A stretch of DNA of 64,000 bases from Tissierella sp. MB52-C2. GTDB taxonomy: Bacteria > Bacillota > Clostridia > Tissierellales > Tissierellaceae. The position numbers and the translations under genes were made by a program. Position 1 is the first letter of the stretch, and every line of letters starts with the position of its first letter. The notes beneath the pieces are model-generated. The model worked only from the letters and a program-made list of their open reading frames with translations, ran no database searches and was not told where the DNA came from. Positions 5,948 through 52,367 of this stretch are shown here, in pieces. The stretch covers positions 1,960,643 through 2,024,642 of the forward strand of contig NZ_CP133261.1 in the NCBI RefSeq assembly GCF_030931715.1, written 5' to 3'.

Positions 5948-5985
5948 AAAAAAAAGAAGAGGTTTAACTCTTCTTTTTTCCCTTA
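5948..5985. terminator. Bidirectional rho-independent terminator.
   Basis: aaaaaaaaa-gaagag-gtttaa-ctcttc-tttttt: the stem is flanked by an A-run and a T-run. Confidence 0.65.
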
Positions 5986-6594
5986 ACATAATCCTCCACT
6001 ATTTAATTGTGGTGGGAAAAATTCTGGAAAATCTGCATAATCAAAAGCTTCACATATATCTGTTGGGCTAAATTCAGTGCACTCAGGTGGTGCTGGACAG
6101 TATCCCAAAGTTGGAATTAATAGTTGGACAGTACCTACTACTTTAATTATAATAAATGTACCTGCTACGAAACTTAGAATTTTTCCTGTTAATACCGGTG
6201 GTGCTAAAACTTCTGATGCCGTTTCTATAACTATTCTAAATTCGAATTCATCTCTTGAGTCTGGAAGATATATTATTATATCTTTTAATATGTCTGGTAA
6301 AAATCCTTCTGCTATTGGATTTCCGTTAGGATCAAATACCTGGAATGGGATTCTTACAGTAAACCTTACTCTCCTAAAATTAGGAGTATCAGTATCTGTA
6401 ACTATTAATGTATTAGGTACTATAAATCCAGGCCTAAATCTTATACTTCCAAAGACTTTATCACATAATTCTACTTCTACCTGTGGAAAGCATTCTCTTT
6501 GTTGACATGATGCAAATACCTTATCCGTAATTATGCAATCAAATTCCAGACATTGAAGAGCCTCAACTGTTTTTTGATTAAGATTTAATTCAGT
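5983..6594 (-). CDS. Cys-rich hypothetical protein, possibly spore-associated.
   Basis: About 203 aa from the RBS-supported GTG start. It has paired Cys at both termini (CLEFDC...C...C / GYCPAPPEC...C...GGLC). There are no TM helices and I do not recognise the family. The spore link is inferred only from the neighbourhood. Confidence 0.45.
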   Translation of the reverse strand, partial: TELNLNQKTVEALQCLEFDCIITDKVFASCQQRECFPQVEVELCDKVFGSIRFRPGFIVPNTLIVTDTDTPNFRRVRFTVRIPFQVFDPNGNPIAEGFLPDILKDIIIYLPDSRDEFEFRIVIETASEVLAPPVLTGKILSFVAGTFIIIKVVGTVQLLIPTLGYCPAPPECTEFSPTDICEAFDYADFPEFFPPQLNSGGLC

Positions 6595-6693
6595 CACGCT
6601 ATTCACTCCTTTTAATTTAATATTTCTATTTTCATTATCATATTATGTATATATAGACCAATGTGCTACTAAATTAATTGCGAGGTGAGAAAA

Positions 6694-8037
6694 ATGTTTG
6701 ATCAAAATATTAGCGTTATATTCAACTCCAGAAAAGACGTTTTTTTATTTAATTTATCAGAAGAAGGAGAAATTATTTATACAATTTATGATTCTTCTTT
6801 AAATAAATTACAATCCAACTTCTTATTTGATAAAAATATATTAAAATACTCTACTCTTATTGACGAAAATGATTTTATACATCTTGTCGCCCTATTGAAT
6901 ACAGGAGAATTAAATTATTATAAATACATAAATGATGAATGGGTAAAAGATAATATAGCTAAATTTGATTTAAAATCAAATTTATATAATCAAATAAAAA
7001 TACTAATAATTAAAGATAATCTTCATATTATATACAATTATTCCAATATAATTAATTCTAATATATGGACAATTCAGCACGTGGTTTTAAATGATAAAAA
7101 CGGAGAAAAACATAATGCCATAAGATATATATCCAAACGAGTCGCTGATCCATTCTTTGTAGATGTAGATAGTTCAGGCAATATTCACGTAGTATATAAG
7201 ACTTATATAAATAATGATTCTCAAATTTATCATGGTTTTTATAATCCATTTACTAGAACTTGGAGTTCAGTATCTAAACACATATCCTCTAGTGACTTCA
7301 ATAATATATTTCCATTTTTATTTATTGATTCTCAAAACAATCTCCATATTCTATGGATAGAAGAATCAATAAATAAATTAAATTTAAAATATTTAAGAAT
7401 GAAAGGCAGTGGGAAAGAAAAATATATATGGAAGGAAATATCTTTACCACATATATCATTATCTAAAAATCAACCAATTATCTTTGAAGAAAACAATAAG
7501 TTAAAACTAATATATTTTTCTAATGATTCCATGATACTTTCATCCTCAAAAGATTATGGAGATAGTTGGGTGAGAGAAGAAATCATGCCTCTACCGCAAA
7601 ATATCTCCATAGCTAAAGTCAACTCAAATATATTACCTTCAGAAAACCAAATAAAATATGGTTATTTAAATATTTTAGATAAACCTATATTTTATTTCTT
7701 AGAACTATATTCTAAATCTTCCATATTAACCTATGATAAAGCCACCTCAGAATCAGAAAGTATCAATGAAGATACTAATATAGAAGTAGATGAAAAAAAG
7801 TCTCATGAATTAGTTGATATAAATCCTATATCCTTCCATGACCTAATGGAAGTAGATAAAAAATTAGAAAAAATAATAGAAAATCAGTATATCTTAACTA
7901 AAATATTGGATAATCAACTTAATATTGAAAATAATCTAAGCAATATTCAAATTAATATTGAAAATAAATTAGACGATATTCAGAAATCTATAGATTCTAA
8001 TAAAAAATCATTTTTTAATAATTTTTTTAATTCTTAA
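6694..8037 (+). CDS. Asn-rich protein with BNR/Asp-box repeat(s) and a C-terminal coiled-coil repeat region.
   Basis: SSKDYGDSW matches the S-x-D-x-G-x-T/S-W Asp-box. The C-terminus has NQLNIENNLSNIQINIENKLDDIQ heptad-like repeats. A GAGGTGAG RBS precedes the ATG at 6694. Confidence 0.5.
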   Translation: MFDQNISVIFNSRKDVFLFNLSEEGEIIYTIYDSSLNKLQSNFLFDKNILKYSTLIDENDFIHLVALLNTGELNYYKYINDEWVKDNIAKFDLKSNLYNQIKILIIKDNLHIIYNYSNIINSNIWTIQHVVLNDKNGEKHNAIRYISKRVADPFFVDVDSSGNIHVVYKTYINNDSQIYHGFYNPFTRTWSSVSKHISSSDFNNIFPFLFIDSQNNLHILWIEESINKLNLKYLRMKGSGKEKYIWKEISLPHISLSKNQPIIFEENNKLKLIYFSNDSMILSSSKDYGDSWVREEIMPLPQNISIAKVNSNILPSENQIKYGYLNILDKPIFYFLELYSKSSILTYDKATSESESINEDTNIEVDEKKSHELVDINPISFHDLMEVDKKLEKIIENQYILTKILDNQLNIENNLSNIQINIENKLDDIQKSIDSNKKSFFNNFFNS

Positions 8038-14650: not shown

Positions 14651-14871
14651 TTTCGTACCTCCTTGAATATAATAATTCTACTATTAAATTATGGCAGAAT
14701 TATTATATTATTTCATACTTTAATTTATTTTACAACTATTTCTTAATCTCTATTTCTCATTCTTCGAAAATATAATATTTAATTCTTAATATTTTCAAGG
14801 ATCTCATCTCTTTTATTTTTTATATTTCCTATTTCATTTTTCACCAAACTAGAAACTATTGTATTTTATTA

Positions 14872-14899
14872 ACACTTTACCTATACATTACATATTCTA
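14872..14899 (+). promoter_or_regulatory. Sigma-K-type promoter (AC -N17- CATATTCTA) upstream of the YjcZ-like micro-ORF.
   Basis: AC at 14872-73, a 17-nt spacer, then CATAttcTA at 14891-99. This matches the sigma-K consensus AC-N16/17-CATAnnnTA. The same architecture recurs at 48422-48449. Confidence 0.55.
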
Positions 14900-14951
14900 T
14901 AGTGAGTGATAACACTCATGTATAAATATTAACTGTATAGGAGGTGTCTTC

Positions 14952-15071
14952 ATGGGTGGTCTATTTGGCGGAAGAGATTGTGACTTTGATGATTCTTTAC
15001 TATTCTTCTTTTTACTATTAGTAGTTCTTTTTACTAATTGTGGTGGCTTTGGTAGAGGTCGATGTTGCTAG
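14952..15071 (+). CDS. YjcZ-like tiny membrane sporulation protein (39 aa).
   Basis: An AGGAGGTG RBS sits 7 nt before the ATG. The protein is MGGLFGGRDCDFDDSLLFFFLLLVVLFTNCGGFGRGRCC. It has a Gly/Cys N-terminus, a hydrophobic core and a Cys-rich C-terminus, typical of the YjcZ/tiny-TM family of Bacillus and Clostridium. It is below the ORF-track size cutoff. Confidence 0.7.
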   Translation: MGGLFGGRDCDFDDSLLFFFLLLVVLFTNCGGFGRGRCC

Positions 15072-15081
15072 CGTAATATAG

Positions 15082-15109
15082 AATGCCCTAGATTTTTTTC
15101 TAGGGCATT
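15082..15109. terminator. Hairpin terminator after the micro-ORF, shared with the convergent antiporter gene.
   Basis: aatgccctaga-tttttt-tctagggcatt. Confidence 0.6.
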
Positions 15110-15114
15110 GTTAT

Positions 15115-16293
15115 TTACTTATTTAGTAAATATTTTGCAGATATTTTTATTCCTATGGCTCCCAATGGTGCTGTGACTAATATGGATAATACTGCAACAG
15201 CCAATATAATATCTCCCGATTCTACACCTAATGATAGTGGCACTGCACCCATTGCAGCTTGAACAGTTGCCTTTGGTATATAGGCAATAATGCAAAATAT
15301 CTTCTCTTTCCAATTCAAATCTGTGTTTAATAGGGAAATCACTACGCCTATACTTCTTCCCAAAAGACCAATTAATAATACTATAATTCCTATCTTTCCA
15401 GCATTAAGTGCAACTTTCACATTTACTTCAGCTCCCACTAGTACAAATAATAGTATTTCTGCAAAGACCCATATTTCATTAAACTTTCCTGCTAGTCTTT
15501 CACCTATCTTAGGCATCTTTTCAATTATAATAAATCCTATGGTCATAACTCCTAATAATGAAGCTATAGCTATTTTTGTCTTTAATAAATTTTCCAATTC
15601 AGTAATAAGAATAGCTAACCCTAATATCAGTAAAACTTTCTTTGCATCTTGTATATTATATTTATTAAATATTTTTACCAATATAAACCCAATAATAGCA
15701 CCAACTAAAATTCCTAATAATATTGATACTGGAATATTTAATAATTGTATACCAATATTCATATGAGATCCACTATATAGCCCTAAAAATCCACTGAATA
15801 TAGTAATAGCGAAAACATCATCAATGGAAGCTCCTGCCAATATCAATGTTGGTATTCCTTTATTTGTTCCCATGTTATTCTCCATTAATTTTAACATAGC
15901 TGGAACCACAACAGCAGGAGAAACTGCCGCAATAATAAATCCTAAAATTCCCCCTTGAATAAAAGAAAAACCTAAAAACTTCACCGATGCAAATGCGATG
16001 AAAAAACCTTCTATTAACCCTGGTATACAGCTCATCTTTAATGCAGGTTTACCAACTCTTTTTAAATCCTCTTTATTTAGCCCAAGGCCTGCCCTAAGCA
16101 AAATTATAATTAGTGCAATTTTTCTTAAATCGGCAGAGGAATTTAATATATCCTTTCCAATTAAGTTAAATCCATAGGGTCCTATTATTATCCCTAATAT
16201 TATCATCCCTAAGAGCCCTGGTAATTTCAGTTTTTCAAATAACTTATTTGCAAGTAGTCCTAACAGTAAAATAATTGCCAAACTTTTTGCCAC
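15115..16293 (-). CDS. Cation:proton (Na+/H+) antiporter, CPA family.
   Basis: About 11-12 TM helices. MAKSLAIILLLGLLANKLFEKLKLPGLLGMIILGIIIGP is a typical CPA1/2 N-terminus. There is no C-terminal regulatory domain. Confidence 0.75.
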   Translation of the reverse strand: MAKSLAIILLLGLLANKLFEKLKLPGLLGMIILGIIIGPYGFNLIGKDILNSSADLRKIALIIILLRAGLGLNKEDLKRVGKPALKMSCIPGLIEGFFIAFASVKFLGFSFIQGGILGFIIAAVSPAVVVPAMLKLMENNMGTNKGIPTLILAGASIDDVFAITIFSGFLGLYSGSHMNIGIQLLNIPVSILLGILVGAIIGFILVKIFNKYNIQDAKKVLLILGLAILITELENLLKTKIAIASLLGVMTIGFIIIEKMPKIGERLAGKFNEIWVFAEILLFVLVGAEVNVKVALNAGKIGIIVLLIGLLGRSIGVVISLLNTDLNWKEKIFCIIAYIPKATVQAAMGAVPLSLGVESGDIILAVAVLSILVTAPLGAIGIKISAKYLLNK

Positions 16294-16476: not shown

Positions 16477-17352
16477 TTATAAGTCAAATAAACTAATTTG
16501 CTTAGATTCATATTTATCTTCAAAGGTATTAAGGTAAGTAAATATTTCCTTTATATCATATATAATTCCACTTTTTTTACATCTTTTATGAAATAAATCC
16601 ATTAACCTCTCACTATGCTTACTCTTTATCTCATAATCATTTCCAAAGGATTTTATATATTGTTGTTTTAATCCAGGAAATTTTTTATCTAAAGCTCTAT
16701 AAAAGTATTCTCTATTTCCCTCACGAAGTGTTAAACCCATACCAAAACAAATAATGCCCTTTACCTTAGCTTCCTCACAATAATCTAAAATCCAATTTAT
16801 ATTTTCCTCAGTATCATTTATAAAAGGTAAAATTGGACATAGCCAAACTATTGTAGGTATTCCGTTATCTCTCATAATTTTTAAAACTTCGACCCGGTCT
16901 TTTGTAGTAGAAACATTTGGCTCTATTAAAGAGCATAGTTCTTCATCAAATGTAGTTAATGTAATTTGAACAACGCATTTGGTCTTTTCATTTATACTCT
17001 TTAATATATCTAAATCCCTCAAAATTCTATTGGATTTAGTCAGTATAGATAATCCAAAGCCATATTTCTCAATAAGATTCAAGCATTGTCTAGTGTGTTG
17101 TAATTGTATTTCAATTGGAATATATGGATCTGTCATGGCACCAGTACCAATCATACAGCGTTTACGTTTTCGTTTCAATGCATCTTCCAATAACTCTACA
17201 GCATTAATTTTCACTTCTATATCTTCGAACTCATGCTGCATTTGGTAACATTTACTTCGAGAGTCACAATAGATACATCCATGAGAGCATCCACGATATA
17301 AATTCATTCCATTTTTAGAAGATAAAATGCTCTTAGCTTTAACTTCATGCAT
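16477..17352 (-). CDS. SPL-family radical SAM protein (COG1533, DNA repair photolyase-like).
   Basis: CSHGCIYC is a CxxxCxxC radical-SAM cluster motif near the N-terminus, in a protein of about 290 aa. It is a paralog-type relative of SplB. Confidence 0.7.
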   Translation of the reverse strand: MHEVKAKSILSSKNGMNLYRGCSHGCIYCDSRSKCYQMQHEFEDIEVKINAVELLEDALKRKRKRCMIGTGAMTDPYIPIEIQLQHTRQCLNLIEKYGFGLSILTKSNRILRDLDILKSINEKTKCVVQITLTTFDEELCSLIEPNVSTTKDRVEVLKIMRDNGIPTIVWLCPILPFINDTEENINWILDYCEEAKVKGIICFGMGLTLREGNREYFYRALDKKFPGLKQQYIKSFGNDYEIKSKHSERLMDLFHKRCKKSGIIYDIKEIFTYLNTFEDKYESKQISLFDL

Positions 17353-18518: not shown

Positions 18519-19529
18519 TTAAGTAAAATATTCGATCTTAGAATTAATAAAATTATCCTGAATTAGTTCTGAAATATATTCTTTTATTTCAGAACTTTGT
18601 TCTTTAGGGTAAACGTATTTAAATTTTCCATAGGGTCCCCACTTAAGTTGCCTATTTTCTTCATTGAGATCTAATTCAGTATTTGGAAATCTAGTAAGAA
18701 TTAATTCCTTTGCAGTAGCCGTAAATCTATGCTGTATAAGTTCAAAGGTAATCTCTTTATTATAGTCCACAAGTTGAGATTTCAAATTGTTTAGTAGTTC
18801 CCTATAATCCTCTTTCCAGTTTTCATATATCATAATAGGTGCTATAATAAAACCTATGGGATAGCCTGCCTTTGCAATTTTTGTTGCAGCTTCTATTCTT
18901 TCTTCAAAACTAGAGGTACTGTGTTCAAATTTTTCTATTATATATTTAGTATTTATACTAAACCTAAACTTAGTATGATCATTATGTTTTATATCTAAAA
19001 ATGAATCTACATTATTAAATTTAGTGATTACCCTAAGTCTTCCATTTTCACTATTAGAAAAGAATTCTATACACTTTTTTAAACTTCCTGTTAAATGCTC
19101 AAGGGCAACTGGATCTGTGATACTTCCACATTCAAAAGTAGTTATATTAGGTAAATTCTCATCTATATGTTCCTGAACTACATCCAATATTTCATCTACA
19201 TTTACAAACACTTTCATAAAGGGCTTTTCACCTTGTGTTGTTTGTAAATAACAATATTCACAATGTCCAGGACATGAACTTGATAAAGCAAATTGATAAT
19301 CTGCCGATGGCTTACACTTTCTTAGTTTTTTTTCCCTACTAACAGTTAGATAAATTGTCTTTTTAGCCTTAGCATAATTCTCGGAAGGAGACTTACCTTC
19401 TATTGCAACTTTTTTTGTTTGTATTATAGGGATATTTAACTTTTCTAATTTTTCCTTTACCATTATTCCAGTATCATATTCTAAACTTTTAGGATCAATA
19501 TATACTCTATCTGGCATAAACAATTTCAT
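18519..19529 (-). CDS. splB: Spore photoproduct lyase.
   Basis: The N-terminus ...MPDRVYIDPKSLEYDTG matches the SplB start. The SSCPGHCEYCYLQT radical-SAM motif is present. Length 336 aa. A GAGGTG RBS precedes the start. Confidence 0.88.
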   Translation of the reverse strand: MKLFMPDRVYIDPKSLEYDTGIMVKEKLEKLNIPIIQTKKVAIEGKSPSENYAKAKKTIYLTVSREKKLRKCKPSADYQFALSSSCPGHCEYCYLQTTQGEKPFMKVFVNVDEILDVVQEHIDENLPNITTFECGSITDPVALEHLTGSLKKCIEFFSNSENGRLRVITKFNNVDSFLDIKHNDHTKFRFSINTKYIIEKFEHSTSSFEERIEAATKIAKAGYPIGFIIAPIMIYENWKEDYRELLNNLKSQLVDYNKEITFELIQHRFTATAKELILTRFPNTELDLNEENRQLKWGPYGKFKYVYPKEQSSEIKEYISELIQDNFINSKIEYFT

Positions 19530-48361: not shown

Positions 48362-48421
48362 AATAGTCATTACCTCCATTAGATCATAAGGGTAGTGTAA
48401 AATATAATATAATATTAATTA

Positions 48422-48449
48422 ACACTTTTTTCCTTAATCTCATATTATA
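48422..48449 (+). promoter_or_regulatory. Second sigma-K-type promoter (AC -N17- CATATTATA).
   Basis: Same architecture as 14872-14899. It is followed by a GGGGGTG RBS and the second micro-ORF. Confidence 0.55.
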
Positions 48450-48496
48450 TCTTAAGTGGAGAACACTTAATATAATTATTAATCGGGGGTGTCTTT

Positions 48497-48619
48497 ATGA
48501 CTGAATTATTAGGTAGAAGAGAGGAATGTTGTGAGACAGATAGTTCTTTACTATTTTTCTTTTTACTGCTTGTAGTAATCTTCTGTAATTGTGGTATGTT
48601 TGGTAGAAGAATAATATAA
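48497..48619 (+). CDS. YjcZ-like tiny membrane sporulation protein (40 aa), paralog of 14952-15071.
   Basis: MTELLGRREECCETDSSLLFFFLLLVVIFCNCGMFGRRII. It has the same core ...SLLFFFLLLVV...CNCG.... A terminator hairpin ggctgcca-atgg-cagcc follows at 48632-48652. Confidence 0.7.
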   Translation: MTELLGRREECCETDSSLLFFFLLLVVIFCNCGMFGRRII

Positions 48620-48655
48620 GCTCAACAGATAAAGGCTGCCAATGGCAGCCCTATT

Positions 48656-51651: not shown

Positions 51652-52329
51652 CTAGTCCCTAGGATTTAAACTAAAATATTCTTCCAATCCCATAGATATT
51701 GAATCTACCACCTTATTTTGGTAATCATCTGTAAGTAAAAGTTGTTCTTCTTTTTCATTTGATAAAAATCCACATTCAATTATTATGGCTGGCATCTTTG
51801 TCTGGTTTAACACAATTAAATCTTCCCTTTCTACAATACCCTTATCCTTAGCCCCAGTTCCATTAATTAGTGAACCCATTATAATCCTTGCTAACTCATT
51901 ATTATTTAAATCACCAATGGTGCTTTCCCTATTTGGATAATAAAGTACCTGAATTCCGTTTATAGAATTATTGTTTTCCATTGCATTTCCATGGATGCTA
52001 ATAAAAACCCTAGCTCTCTTTTTATTTGTCAATTTAGCCCTTAAAAGATTATCTACATATTCATCACTATCTCTAGTTAAAATAACTTTATAACCATTTG
52101 ACTTTAACTTTTGTTTTAATTTTTTAGAAATATTTAGATTAATATCTTTTTCATAATTACCATTAAATCCAATAGTCCCAGGATCGCTCCCCCCATGTCC
52201 AGCATCTATTACTATGACTTTCTCTAAGGATTTAAAATTTGTATCTATAAAAGGAATCCCTTTAAAAACAATAAACATAAATAAACCTATTAAACCAATT
52301 AAAAATACTCTTCTAACTCTTCTAAACAT
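51652..52329 (-). CDS. cwlD: N-acetylmuramoyl-L-alanine amidase, CwlD-like (Amidase_3).
   Basis: N-terminal TM then VIDAGHGGSDPGTIG...E...H, the MurNAc-LAA zinc-site pattern. About 225 aa, like the germination-specific CwlD. Start placed at the RBS-supported MFRRV. Confidence 0.65.
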   Translation of the reverse strand: MFRRVRRVFLIGLIGLFMFIVFKGIPFIDTNFKSLEKVIVIDAGHGGSDPGTIGFNGNYEKDINLNISKKLKQKLKSNGYKVILTRDSDEYVDNLLRAKLTNKKRARVFISIHGNAMENNNSINGIQVLYYPNRESTIGDLNNNELARIIMGSLINGTGAKDKGIVEREDLIVLNQTKMPAIIIECGFLSNEKEEQLLLTDDYQNKVVDSISMGLEEYFSLNPRD

Positions 52330-52367
52330 CAACCGTCTCCCCCTTATGCTGATAAGTATCACATAAA

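Follow-up and report, generated by a model that had tools for sequence, protein, structure and literature searches.

A conserved LLFFFLLLV micro-protein family of Tissierellia and Clostridia with a likely sigma-K-type promoter

In a 64-kb window (the whole stretch of DNA analysed, 64,000 nucleotides) of the Tissierella sp. MB52-C2 genome, which is complete at 3.89 Mb, positions 14952-15071 are a genuine monocistronic gene for a 39-amino-acid peptide with one predicted transmembrane-type helix. We call this gene copy 1; a paralogue, copy 2, lies further along in the same window. Copy 1 is best seen as belonging to a large new family which has no Pfam or NCBIfam model and which parallels YjcZ. 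Our full reading is that a real gene of this unmodelled family is transcribed from a sigma-K-type promoter and encodes a membrane peptide of the mother cell late in sporulation, and we consider it probable as a whole.

The two genes and their local elements

The elements of the two loci, with neighbouring genes that bear on the argument, are as follows.

14869-14875, plus strand: -35 box of copy 1, TTAACAC, with its AC at 14872-14873
14891-14899, plus strand: -10 box of copy 1, CATATTCTA, after a 17-nt spacer from AC
14903-14906, plus strand: TGAG block just 3' of the -10 box of copy 1, putative transcription start region
14940-14944, plus strand: ribosome-binding site of copy 1, GGAGG, with the ATG 7 nt downstream
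14952-15071, plus strand: coding sequence of copy 1 including the stop codon, 39 amino acids, MGGLFGGRDCDFDDSLLFFFLLLVVLFTNCGGFGRGRCC
15082-15109, unstranded: hairpin terminator 3' of copy 1, common to the convergent antiporter gene ending at 15115
Flanking copy 1: DegV (WMM23282.1)
Flanking copy 1: cation:proton antiporter (WMM23283.1)
16477-17352, opposite strand to copy 1: SPL-family radical SAM protein (WMM23284.1)
In the window: spore photoproduct lyase (WMM23287.1)
48419-48425, plus strand: -35 box of copy 2, TTAACAC; counted from its AC, the motif spans 48422-48449
48441-48449, plus strand: -10 box of copy 2, CATATTATA, after a 17-nt spacer from AC
48485-48489, plus strand: ribosome-binding site of copy 2, GGGGG(TG), with the ATG 7 nt downstream
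48497-48619, plus strand: coding sequence of copy 2, a 40-amino-acid paralogue, MTELLGRREECCETDSSLLFFFLLLVVIFCNCGMFGRRII
48634-48650, unstranded: hairpin terminator of copy 2, common to the convergent leuS
Near copy 2: sigma-54 regulator (WMM23316.1)
Near copy 2: LeuRS (WMM23318.1)

An earlier note on this DNA, made from the letters alone, had described the open reading frame of copy 1 with a strong ribosome-binding site, the AC-N17-CATATTCTA promoter, a 52-nt gap from the -10 box to the ATG, and a downstream hairpin. All of these were recovered in our analysis. The hairpin has 11 pairs, five of them G-C, and a folding energy of -18.6 kcal/mol (z = -6.2 against shuffled sequences), with a weak T tail. 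The composition of the peptide also agrees with the layout given in the note, which was a Gly/Cys-containing N-terminal end, a hydrophobic core, and a Cys-rich C-terminal end. The N-flank contains four glycines, all in the first seven residues, and one cysteine, and is acidic as well. A core of Leu, Phe, and Val follows, and the C-flank contains three cysteines. Copy 2 shares 66% identity with copy 1 and has the same arrangement: TTAACAC is followed by CATATTnTA with the spacing of copy 1, and the gene ends at a hairpin of -14.6 kcal/mol (z = -3.0). The G+C content of the window is 30%.

The leader was inspected for RNA structure. One fold has a 5-bp hairpin that directly follows the -10 box and shows compensatory changes when copy 1 and copy 2 are compared. 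It was dropped as a feature because the folds are unremarkable and because the hairpin, which we looked for in other genera, is not kept there. In the alternative leader fold, ACACUC pairs with the ribosome-binding site; the z-scores of the two folds are -1.4 and -1.8. When the leader and the gene were scanned against Rfam, there was one sub-threshold match, which we attribute to chance.

The peptide family and its relation to YjcZ

Homologues were searched in two ways. A word-indexed search with the 40-amino-acid paralogue (copy 2) as the query returned 14 relatives, almost all without names, and badly underestimates the family. An exhaustive profile search, counted in representatives at 50% identity, gave 333 with E <= 1e-3, of which 57 were at <= 1e-10. 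Conservation of the peptide in related genomes, on which the earlier note had made its reading depend, was found in several genera. The core motif, (D/S)(S/E)-LLFFFLLLV(V/I)(I/L)F, was present in all 144 sequences that we inspected, and a strict pattern matched all but four of them; the core is usually followed by C-N-C. Each unit of the family consists of a Gly-rich acidic N-flank, the almost invariant core (D/S)S-LLFFFLLLV(V/I)(I/L)F, C-N-C, and a short tail of Cys, Gly, and Arg. Among the 144 inspected members, about 55 have one unit (~27-50 amino acids) and about 85 have two units in tandem (~55-100 amino acids). In 52 single-unit members the mean net charge was -1.96 for the N-flank and +0.46 for the C-flank, the C-flank carried 2.4 cysteines on average, and CNC directly followed the core in 37 of the 52. 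The window peptide had no match in Pfam or NCBIfam at E <= 10, and the core motif was not found in the searchable literature.

Strong selection on the protein sequence is evident from the codons. Among 30 copies of the core, the invariant Leu positions are encoded by four to five different codons, Phe by both of its codons, and the conserved Ser by codons of both the TCN and the AGY type. Over the 12-residue core, the pairwise codon differences were 2549 synonymous and 822 non-synonymous, the latter nearly all swaps among Ile, Leu, and Val. This codon test excludes copy 1 as a spurious chance ORF and bears out the earlier claim of a real micro-protein gene. Nearly every family gene also has a GGAGG-like site 6-9 nt 5' of the ATG.

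AlphaFold2 predicted a single helix at residues 10-30, with a mean pLDDT of 78-87 over residues 11-30 and 68.7 overall. The fully hydrophobic run in this helix has a length of 12-13 residues, rather few for crossing a bilayer. Transmembrane anchors normally keep their hydrophobicity and not their sequence. The near-invariance of a hydrophobic 12-residue stretch across genera is therefore unusual and points to a specific interaction.

The family is often multi-copy. Two genes are in the window, and two to four lie within a few kilobases at each of six other loci (L003 and L006-L010), often as tandem arrays. Across 13 loci we found no recurring neighbour gene beyond the synteny among close relatives, and the family gene is therefore a stand-alone gene.

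The earlier note had called the peptide YjcZ-like and proposed a search with the YjcZ/TIGR01732 family as a check. The likeness holds for architecture. YjcZ (PF09680, YjcZ_2; TIGR01732, "tiny transmembrane protein"; Bacillaceae) and the present family are both 30-60 amino acids with a Gly-rich N-terminal end, and both have a near-invariant hydrophobic core of ~13-16 residues with a cysteine just after it. Both are multi-copy and form tandem arrays, which for YjcZ were seen at two control loci (L021 and L022). The yjcZ gene of B. subtilis is assigned to the sigma-K regulon (PMC517825), and 18 of 22 lead genes of the family have a sigma-K-type promoter.

Family membership in YjcZ did not hold. 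PF09680 and TIGR01732 at E <= 10 matched none of 15 members, the window peptide included, and none of 80 further members (0 of 95 in total), so that the proposed check was negative for the window peptide and for its relatives. Short hydrophobic peptides of this kind are detectable by HMM, since all 29 true YjcZ proteins used as a control matched PF09680 (best E-value 5.8e-14). Alignment of the two profiles with hhalign gave a probability of 23.6% over 13 aligned hydrophobic columns with 31% identity, and none of the 144 inspected profile-search matches graded toward the YjcZ core. The cores themselves differ, being DSS-LLFFFLLLVVIF-CNC in the family and GGG-FALIVVLFILLIIVG-ASC in YjcZ. The conserved YjcZ core, G-G-G-F-A-L-I-V-V-L-F-I-L-L-I-I-V-G with its near-invariant GGGFALIVVLFILLIIVG, is not present in the window peptide. 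Unlike YjcZ, the family has an acidic N-flank adjoining the core, and two-unit forms are common. The named hosts of the family are Tissierellia and Clostridia, whereas the named YjcZ matches were all from bacilli. By any test applied, the family is not a member of YjcZ, though its architecture and genomic habits are alike. One Alkaliphilus member (P0005) bears the UniRef name "Sporulation protein YjcZ", which no model match backs here and which we suspect to be an automatic name.

The conserved promoter and its sigma factor

Taken alone, the promoter match of copy 1 is at chance level. For the motif AC-N17-CATAnnnTA, 4.0 occurrences would be expected in the 64-kb window, and three were found. 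Two of the three matches precede the paralogous micro-ORFs on the correct strand and at matching distances; the third, at 7100, is inside an ORF (6685-8037) and was taken as chance. A weight matrix made solely from family promoters outside the window was used to score all window positions on both strands. The promoters of the two micro-ORFs ranked first and second, with scores of 21.3 (copy 2) and 17.3 (copy 1), and the next score was 13.5. In 20 shuffled windows the top scores were 12.2-18.9, so that 21.3 was above all 20, while 17.3 was surpassed in three of them. This matrix is over-fitted to the -35 context of the Tissierella type, as seen at one locus (L020) which scored 0.4 despite a good match to the consensus. 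The final tally was made with the plain published consensus and not with the family matrix.

We count the promoter as real because it is conserved across genomes. AC-N16/17-CATAnnnT(A/G) was found in 18 of 22 stand-alone or array-leading family genes, with the AC 57-85 nt 5' of the ATG, against a background of 0.0054 per gene for the promoter zone. The four lead genes without the strict motif are at three loci (L007a, L008b, L009a, and L009b). The nominal binomial P of ~1e-37 ignores relatedness, but many genera are represented among the hosts and the spacers bear no relation to one another. These hosts are Tissierella praeacuta, T. simiarum, uncultured Tissierella, Paratissierella segnis, Serpentinicella, Crassaminicella profunda, Alkaliphilus flagellatus, and several Clostridia and metagenome lineages. 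At the family loci examined, internal array genes had no promoter motif of their own, as expected for one promoter per operon.

Fifteen promoters were aligned on the -10 box. The information content is highest over two boxes, T-(A/C)-A-C-(A/C) and C-A-T-A-n-n-n-T-A, and the spacer between them is unconserved (0-0.8 bits). In the -35 element T[AC]AC[AC], the T, A, and C are invariant (15/15). In the -10 box, the C, A, and T and the closing T are present in all 15, the fourth base is A in 14, and the final A is present in 13. A T.AG block, which lies 12-15 nt past the C of CATA, is also kept between genera and would correspond to the transcription start region.

[quoted passage not shown] Eichenberger et al. 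argued that the DNA-recognition residues of both sigma factors are conserved among endospore formers (PMC517825). The aligned family promoters have AC in all 15 and ATA at that position in none. The C and A ahead of TAnnnT are also present in all 15, and the position that matches the G of TTGACA is never G. Because of these invariant bases, with no G in the TTGACA position and no ATA, the promoter is quite likely of sigma-K type rather than of sigma-A or sigma-E type, as judged from base conservation. The earlier proposal of a sigma-K promoter for copy 1 is accordingly upheld as a conserved two-box promoter of that type. It shares with the B. subtilis and C. difficile sigma-K consensus the AC of the -35 element, the CATAnnnTA of the -10 element, and a spacer of 16-17 nt, and all of them are without ATA. 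Compared with the published sigma-K consensus, the family appears to have two additions, a T before (A/C)AC and the T.AG block after the -10 box. In a control of four true YjcZ loci, one had a strict sigma-K match, two had a near match, and one had none; the sigma-K-type promoter is thus clearer in the LLFFFLLLV family than at these loci.

Transcription by sigma-A in vegetative cells is the main competing explanation. The gene would then be real, and its product an ordinary small membrane protein unrelated to sporulation. Such a housekeeping promoter is a real rival because a sigma-70 scan scores the same DNA at 9-10 of 12: as TTAACA-N18-TATTAT, copy 2 scores 10/12 and copy 1 scores 9/12. In addition, CATAnnnTA includes a TAnnnT hexamer. 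However, the G of TTGACA never occurs (0/15), its first T is replaced by G in six of the 15, and sigma-A recognition has no use for an invariant C and A preceding TAnnnT. The spacing needed is 18 nt instead of the usual 17. In other genera the best sigma-A scores were 8-9 of 12, often at shifted positions, whereas AC and CATA stayed fixed. We regard sigma-A transcription as improbable.

The sporulation status of the host also bears on this question. Spore photoproduct lyase repairs a spore-specific DNA lesion, and the window that contains the micro-protein genes also encodes this enzyme (WMM23287.1; TIGR04070, 503.8 bits against a cutoff of 400). The genus description of Tissierella, which favors sigma-A, is that of a non-spore-forming genus (PMC9558573). 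It conflicts with Galperin et al., who listed Tissierella with the spore-formers that retain many sporulation genes. They also found sigK in every spore-former, with split sigK genes in Tissierellia.

Transcription by sigma-E, alone or together with sigma-K, would mean that the peptide acts, as SpoVM or CmpA do, during engulfment or when coat assembly begins. The -10 boxes of sigma-E and sigma-K are closely alike (PMC3789822), and 28 of 103 sigma-K genes of B. subtilis are transcribed under sigma-E too (PMC517825). The -35 element nevertheless argues against sigma-E, as the AC in 15 of 15 promoters and the lack of any ATA fall on the sigma-K side of the reported distinguishing feature (PMC3789822). 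This explanation is quite improbable in our view.

SpoVM and CmpA are small Bacillus mother-cell peptides which act at the forespore surface or membrane and are sigma-E-dependent. They resemble the present family in being micro-proteins, and the mother-cell origin of the family is suggested by its promoter. SpoVM differs in that its helix is amphipathic and binds to a surface instead of forming a hydrophobic span, and we know of no sequence similarity of SpoVM or CmpA to the family.

Possible function, other peptide classes, and annotation

From sequence, we infer a dependence on sigma-K together with a timing, a topology, a localisation, and a role for the peptide. Late in sporulation, RNA polymerase with sigma-K would make a short mRNA that starts with a leader of ~25-55 nt, has a strong ribosome-binding site, and ends at a hairpin terminator. 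The peptide may then insert into a membrane of mother-cell origin, which could be that of the mother cell itself or the outer forespore membrane. In the orientation expected from the positive-inside rule, the acidic N-terminal end of the peptide would be directed outward and its Cys-rich tail toward the mother-cell cytoplasm. The earlier note's description of a late mother-cell, coat-phase product goes further than the promoter motif behind it. The invariant helix and the juxtamembrane cysteines could engage a specific partner or self-assemble. The peptide would then be the clostridial and tissierellial counterpart of the Bacillus YjcZ micro-proteins.

Two other classes of small peptide were weighed against this reading. 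A type I toxin would be a small hydrophobic membrane-damaging peptide checked by an antisense RNA. The size and the single hydrophobic helix fit this class, as represented by Fst, TxpA, and the C. difficile CD-toxins, and copy 1 and copy 2 both have an antisense sigma-70-like match that lies shortly after the stop codon. However, such an antisense match was found for three of the 17 genes of the family that were scanned, and random windows of 100 nt contain one in 14.7% of cases; Rfam gave no match. The C-tail of the family is rich in Cys and Gly and, with its slight mean positive charge, not strongly basic. Type I toxins typically do not form tandem arrays behind one sporulation-type promoter or so large a conserved family, and the arrays and the 333 conserved representatives are atypical in this respect. 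With no conserved antisense promoter, no basic tail, a sporulation-type promoter, and tandem arrays, the family is unlike these toxins, and we find this explanation extremely unlikely.

The peptide could instead be a precursor of a RiPP or bacteriocin whose cysteines are modified by a maturase, for example by the radical SAM enzyme two genes away from copy 1. The peptides are short and Cys-rich, occur in multiple tandem copies, and have Gly-Gly near the N-terminal end, and the radical SAM gene lies at 16477-17352. Against this, no maturase, protease, or ABC exporter recurs across the loci. The nearby enzyme is encoded on the opposite strand, past the antiporter, and is annotated as an "SPL family radical SAM protein", which is of the DNA-repair type, and copy 2 has no radical SAM neighbour. 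The NCBIfam models of RiPP precursors gave no match, SCIFF included, and a SCIFF peptide was rejected on this ground. The invariant part of the family is a hydrophobic helix and not a leader plus core. A RiPP precursor is therefore just as implausible as a toxin.

Beyond the late mother-cell membrane peptide preferred here, a wider possibility is that the LLFFFLLLV micro-proteins and YjcZ are two branches, or convergent solutions, of one late mother-cell class which forms a defined membrane structure. We hold this idea as speculative and on balance doubtful. It would mean that the exact helix sequence is selected and not mere hydrophobicity. The structure might be, for example, an oligomer in the outer forespore membrane whose juxtamembrane cysteines anchor the coat or, alternatively, a holin-like pore that sets the timing of mother-cell lysis and of spore release. 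If the idea is true, such a peptide would be present in every major lineage of endospore formers, and its role would fill a gap in the picture of late spore morphogenesis.

If our inference on the single family is right, Tissierellia and some Clostridia own a counterpart of YjcZ with at least 333 clusters at 50% identity. This finding fits existing ideas and overturns nothing. The conserved family promoters provide a clean set of sites for the sigma-K motif in Tissierellia, for which, to our knowledge, no regulon data exist. The family is also defined well enough for an HMM that would correct annotations.

Copy 1 is without annotation in the GenBank record of Tissierella sp. MB52-C2, as the earlier note had claimed, since the flanking DegV and antiporter genes have consecutive accessions (WMM23282.1 and WMM23283.1). 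Its 39-amino-acid sequence is known only from a Logan assembly. Copy 2 is probably annotated as WMM23317.1 because exactly one accession lies between those of the flanking genes and no ORF other than copy 2 is plausible in that place; its exact sequence was not in the searched protein collection. The RefSeq homologues are annotated as "hypothetical protein". The statement in the earlier note that such genes are routinely missed thus applies to copy 1 and does not extend to the RefSeq homologues or, probably, to copy 2. Annotation pipelines appear to be uneven for these genes: within one genome, one paralogue was apparently called and the other was missed.

Sequence downstream of the −10 box

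Across genera, a T(G/A)AG block is kept 3-6 nt past the −10 box of the sigma-K-type promoter, at up to 1.5 bits, in the two window copies and in the comparison loci L001-L011 from other genomes. This block is probably the transcription start region. Alternatively, it could be a site bound by another factor. Apart from the candidate start region, we found a potential 5-bp hairpin directly after the −10 box of both copy 1 (the 39-aa gene) and copy 2 (its 40-aa paralogue):

14903-14906, T(G/A)AG block of copy 1
48456-48462, T(G/A)AG block of copy 2
14904-14917, potential 5-bp hairpin of copy 1, GAGTG-ATAA-CACTC
48454-48468, potential 5-bp hairpin of copy 2, AAGTG-GAGAA-CACTT

The stems carry compensatory changes between the two copies, and the hairpin would be located at the extreme 5′ end of both mRNAs. 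In the minimum-energy fold, ACACUC/ACACUU pairs with the ribosome-binding site instead of forming this hairpin. The leader folds of the window copies are non-significant (z = −1.4 and −1.8), and the hairpin is absent from the other genera compared.

Two-unit proteins, arrays and further promoter matches

Over half of the inspected family sequences (about 85 of the 144 profile-search hits P0141-P0284) are two-unit proteins, for which the loci L001, L002, L004, L005, L007, L010, and L018 are listed. In these proteins, the entire D-S-LLFFFLLLV-F unit is duplicated in tandem with a short acidic linker between the units (...CNCGxFEDxxDS...), and the CNC motif is often lost from the second unit. A Clostridia MAG locus (L006) holds four family copies in about 2.2 kb. 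Three of them are arranged head-to-tail behind a single promoter, and the fourth lies on the other strand. Head-to-tail arrays, with two or three members and spacers about 40-50 nt long, are likewise formed by genuine YjcZ (PF09680) genes. In the L021 array of B. thuringiensis, the 130 nt upstream contain no recognisable sigma-K consensus.

L006, 2989-3447, and about 1288 on the minus strand, family copies
L021 (B. thuringiensis AE017355), 706-1129, YjcZ array
L022, 851-1138, YjcZ array

Two family loci contain further matches to the promoter motif. In Alkaliphilus flagellatus (L018, about 1714-1850), a second sigma-K-like motif, TAACC...CATATTATA, is positioned just 3′ of the family gene. What follows this motif has coding potential for no more than the C-terminal tail (...LFGGRGLWSC) of a two-unit protein, and may be a decayed family copy. 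At L019, a separate good match to the promoter motif, TAACA...CATAATATA (693-722), belongs to the 224-aa gene directly 5′ of the family gene. This gene has no Pfam match and may be a further member of the same regulon.

Annotation of the two copies

In the GenBank numbering, a single accession, WMM23317.1, falls between the sigma-54 regulator and LeuRS (window 48362-48655). Because one accession fills that gap, copy 2 seems to be annotated in GenBank, while its paralogue copy 1 is not. The annotation pipeline appears to have handled two near-identical micro-genes of one genome differently.

Other genes and promoter-like sites in the window

A short divergent intergenic region (6606-6685) contains two mid-scoring mother-cell-type promoter-like sites, whose scores of 12.5 and 13.2 are inside the shuffled-sequence range. 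Both flanking genes are without a Pfam or NCBIfam match.

Within 6606-6685, site with an ATA-type −35 box, facing 6685-8037 (+, 450 aa)
Within 6606-6685, site with GCAC at −35, facing 5983-6606 (−, 207 aa)

The amidase at 51652-52362 (−) is similar to CwlD (TIGR02883), a spore-cortex enzyme, but its score of 154.5 bits falls short of the 221.55 cutoff, so it is not assignable. Two related radical SAM genes are about 1.2 kb apart:

16477-17352 (−), 'SPL family radical SAM protein' gene
18519-19529 (−), bona fide spore photoproduct lyase gene (TIGR04070, 503.8 bits)

Spore photoproduct lyase is a spore-specific repair enzyme, encoded here in a genus that is sometimes called non-spore-forming; Tissierella has been described in this way (PMC9558573).
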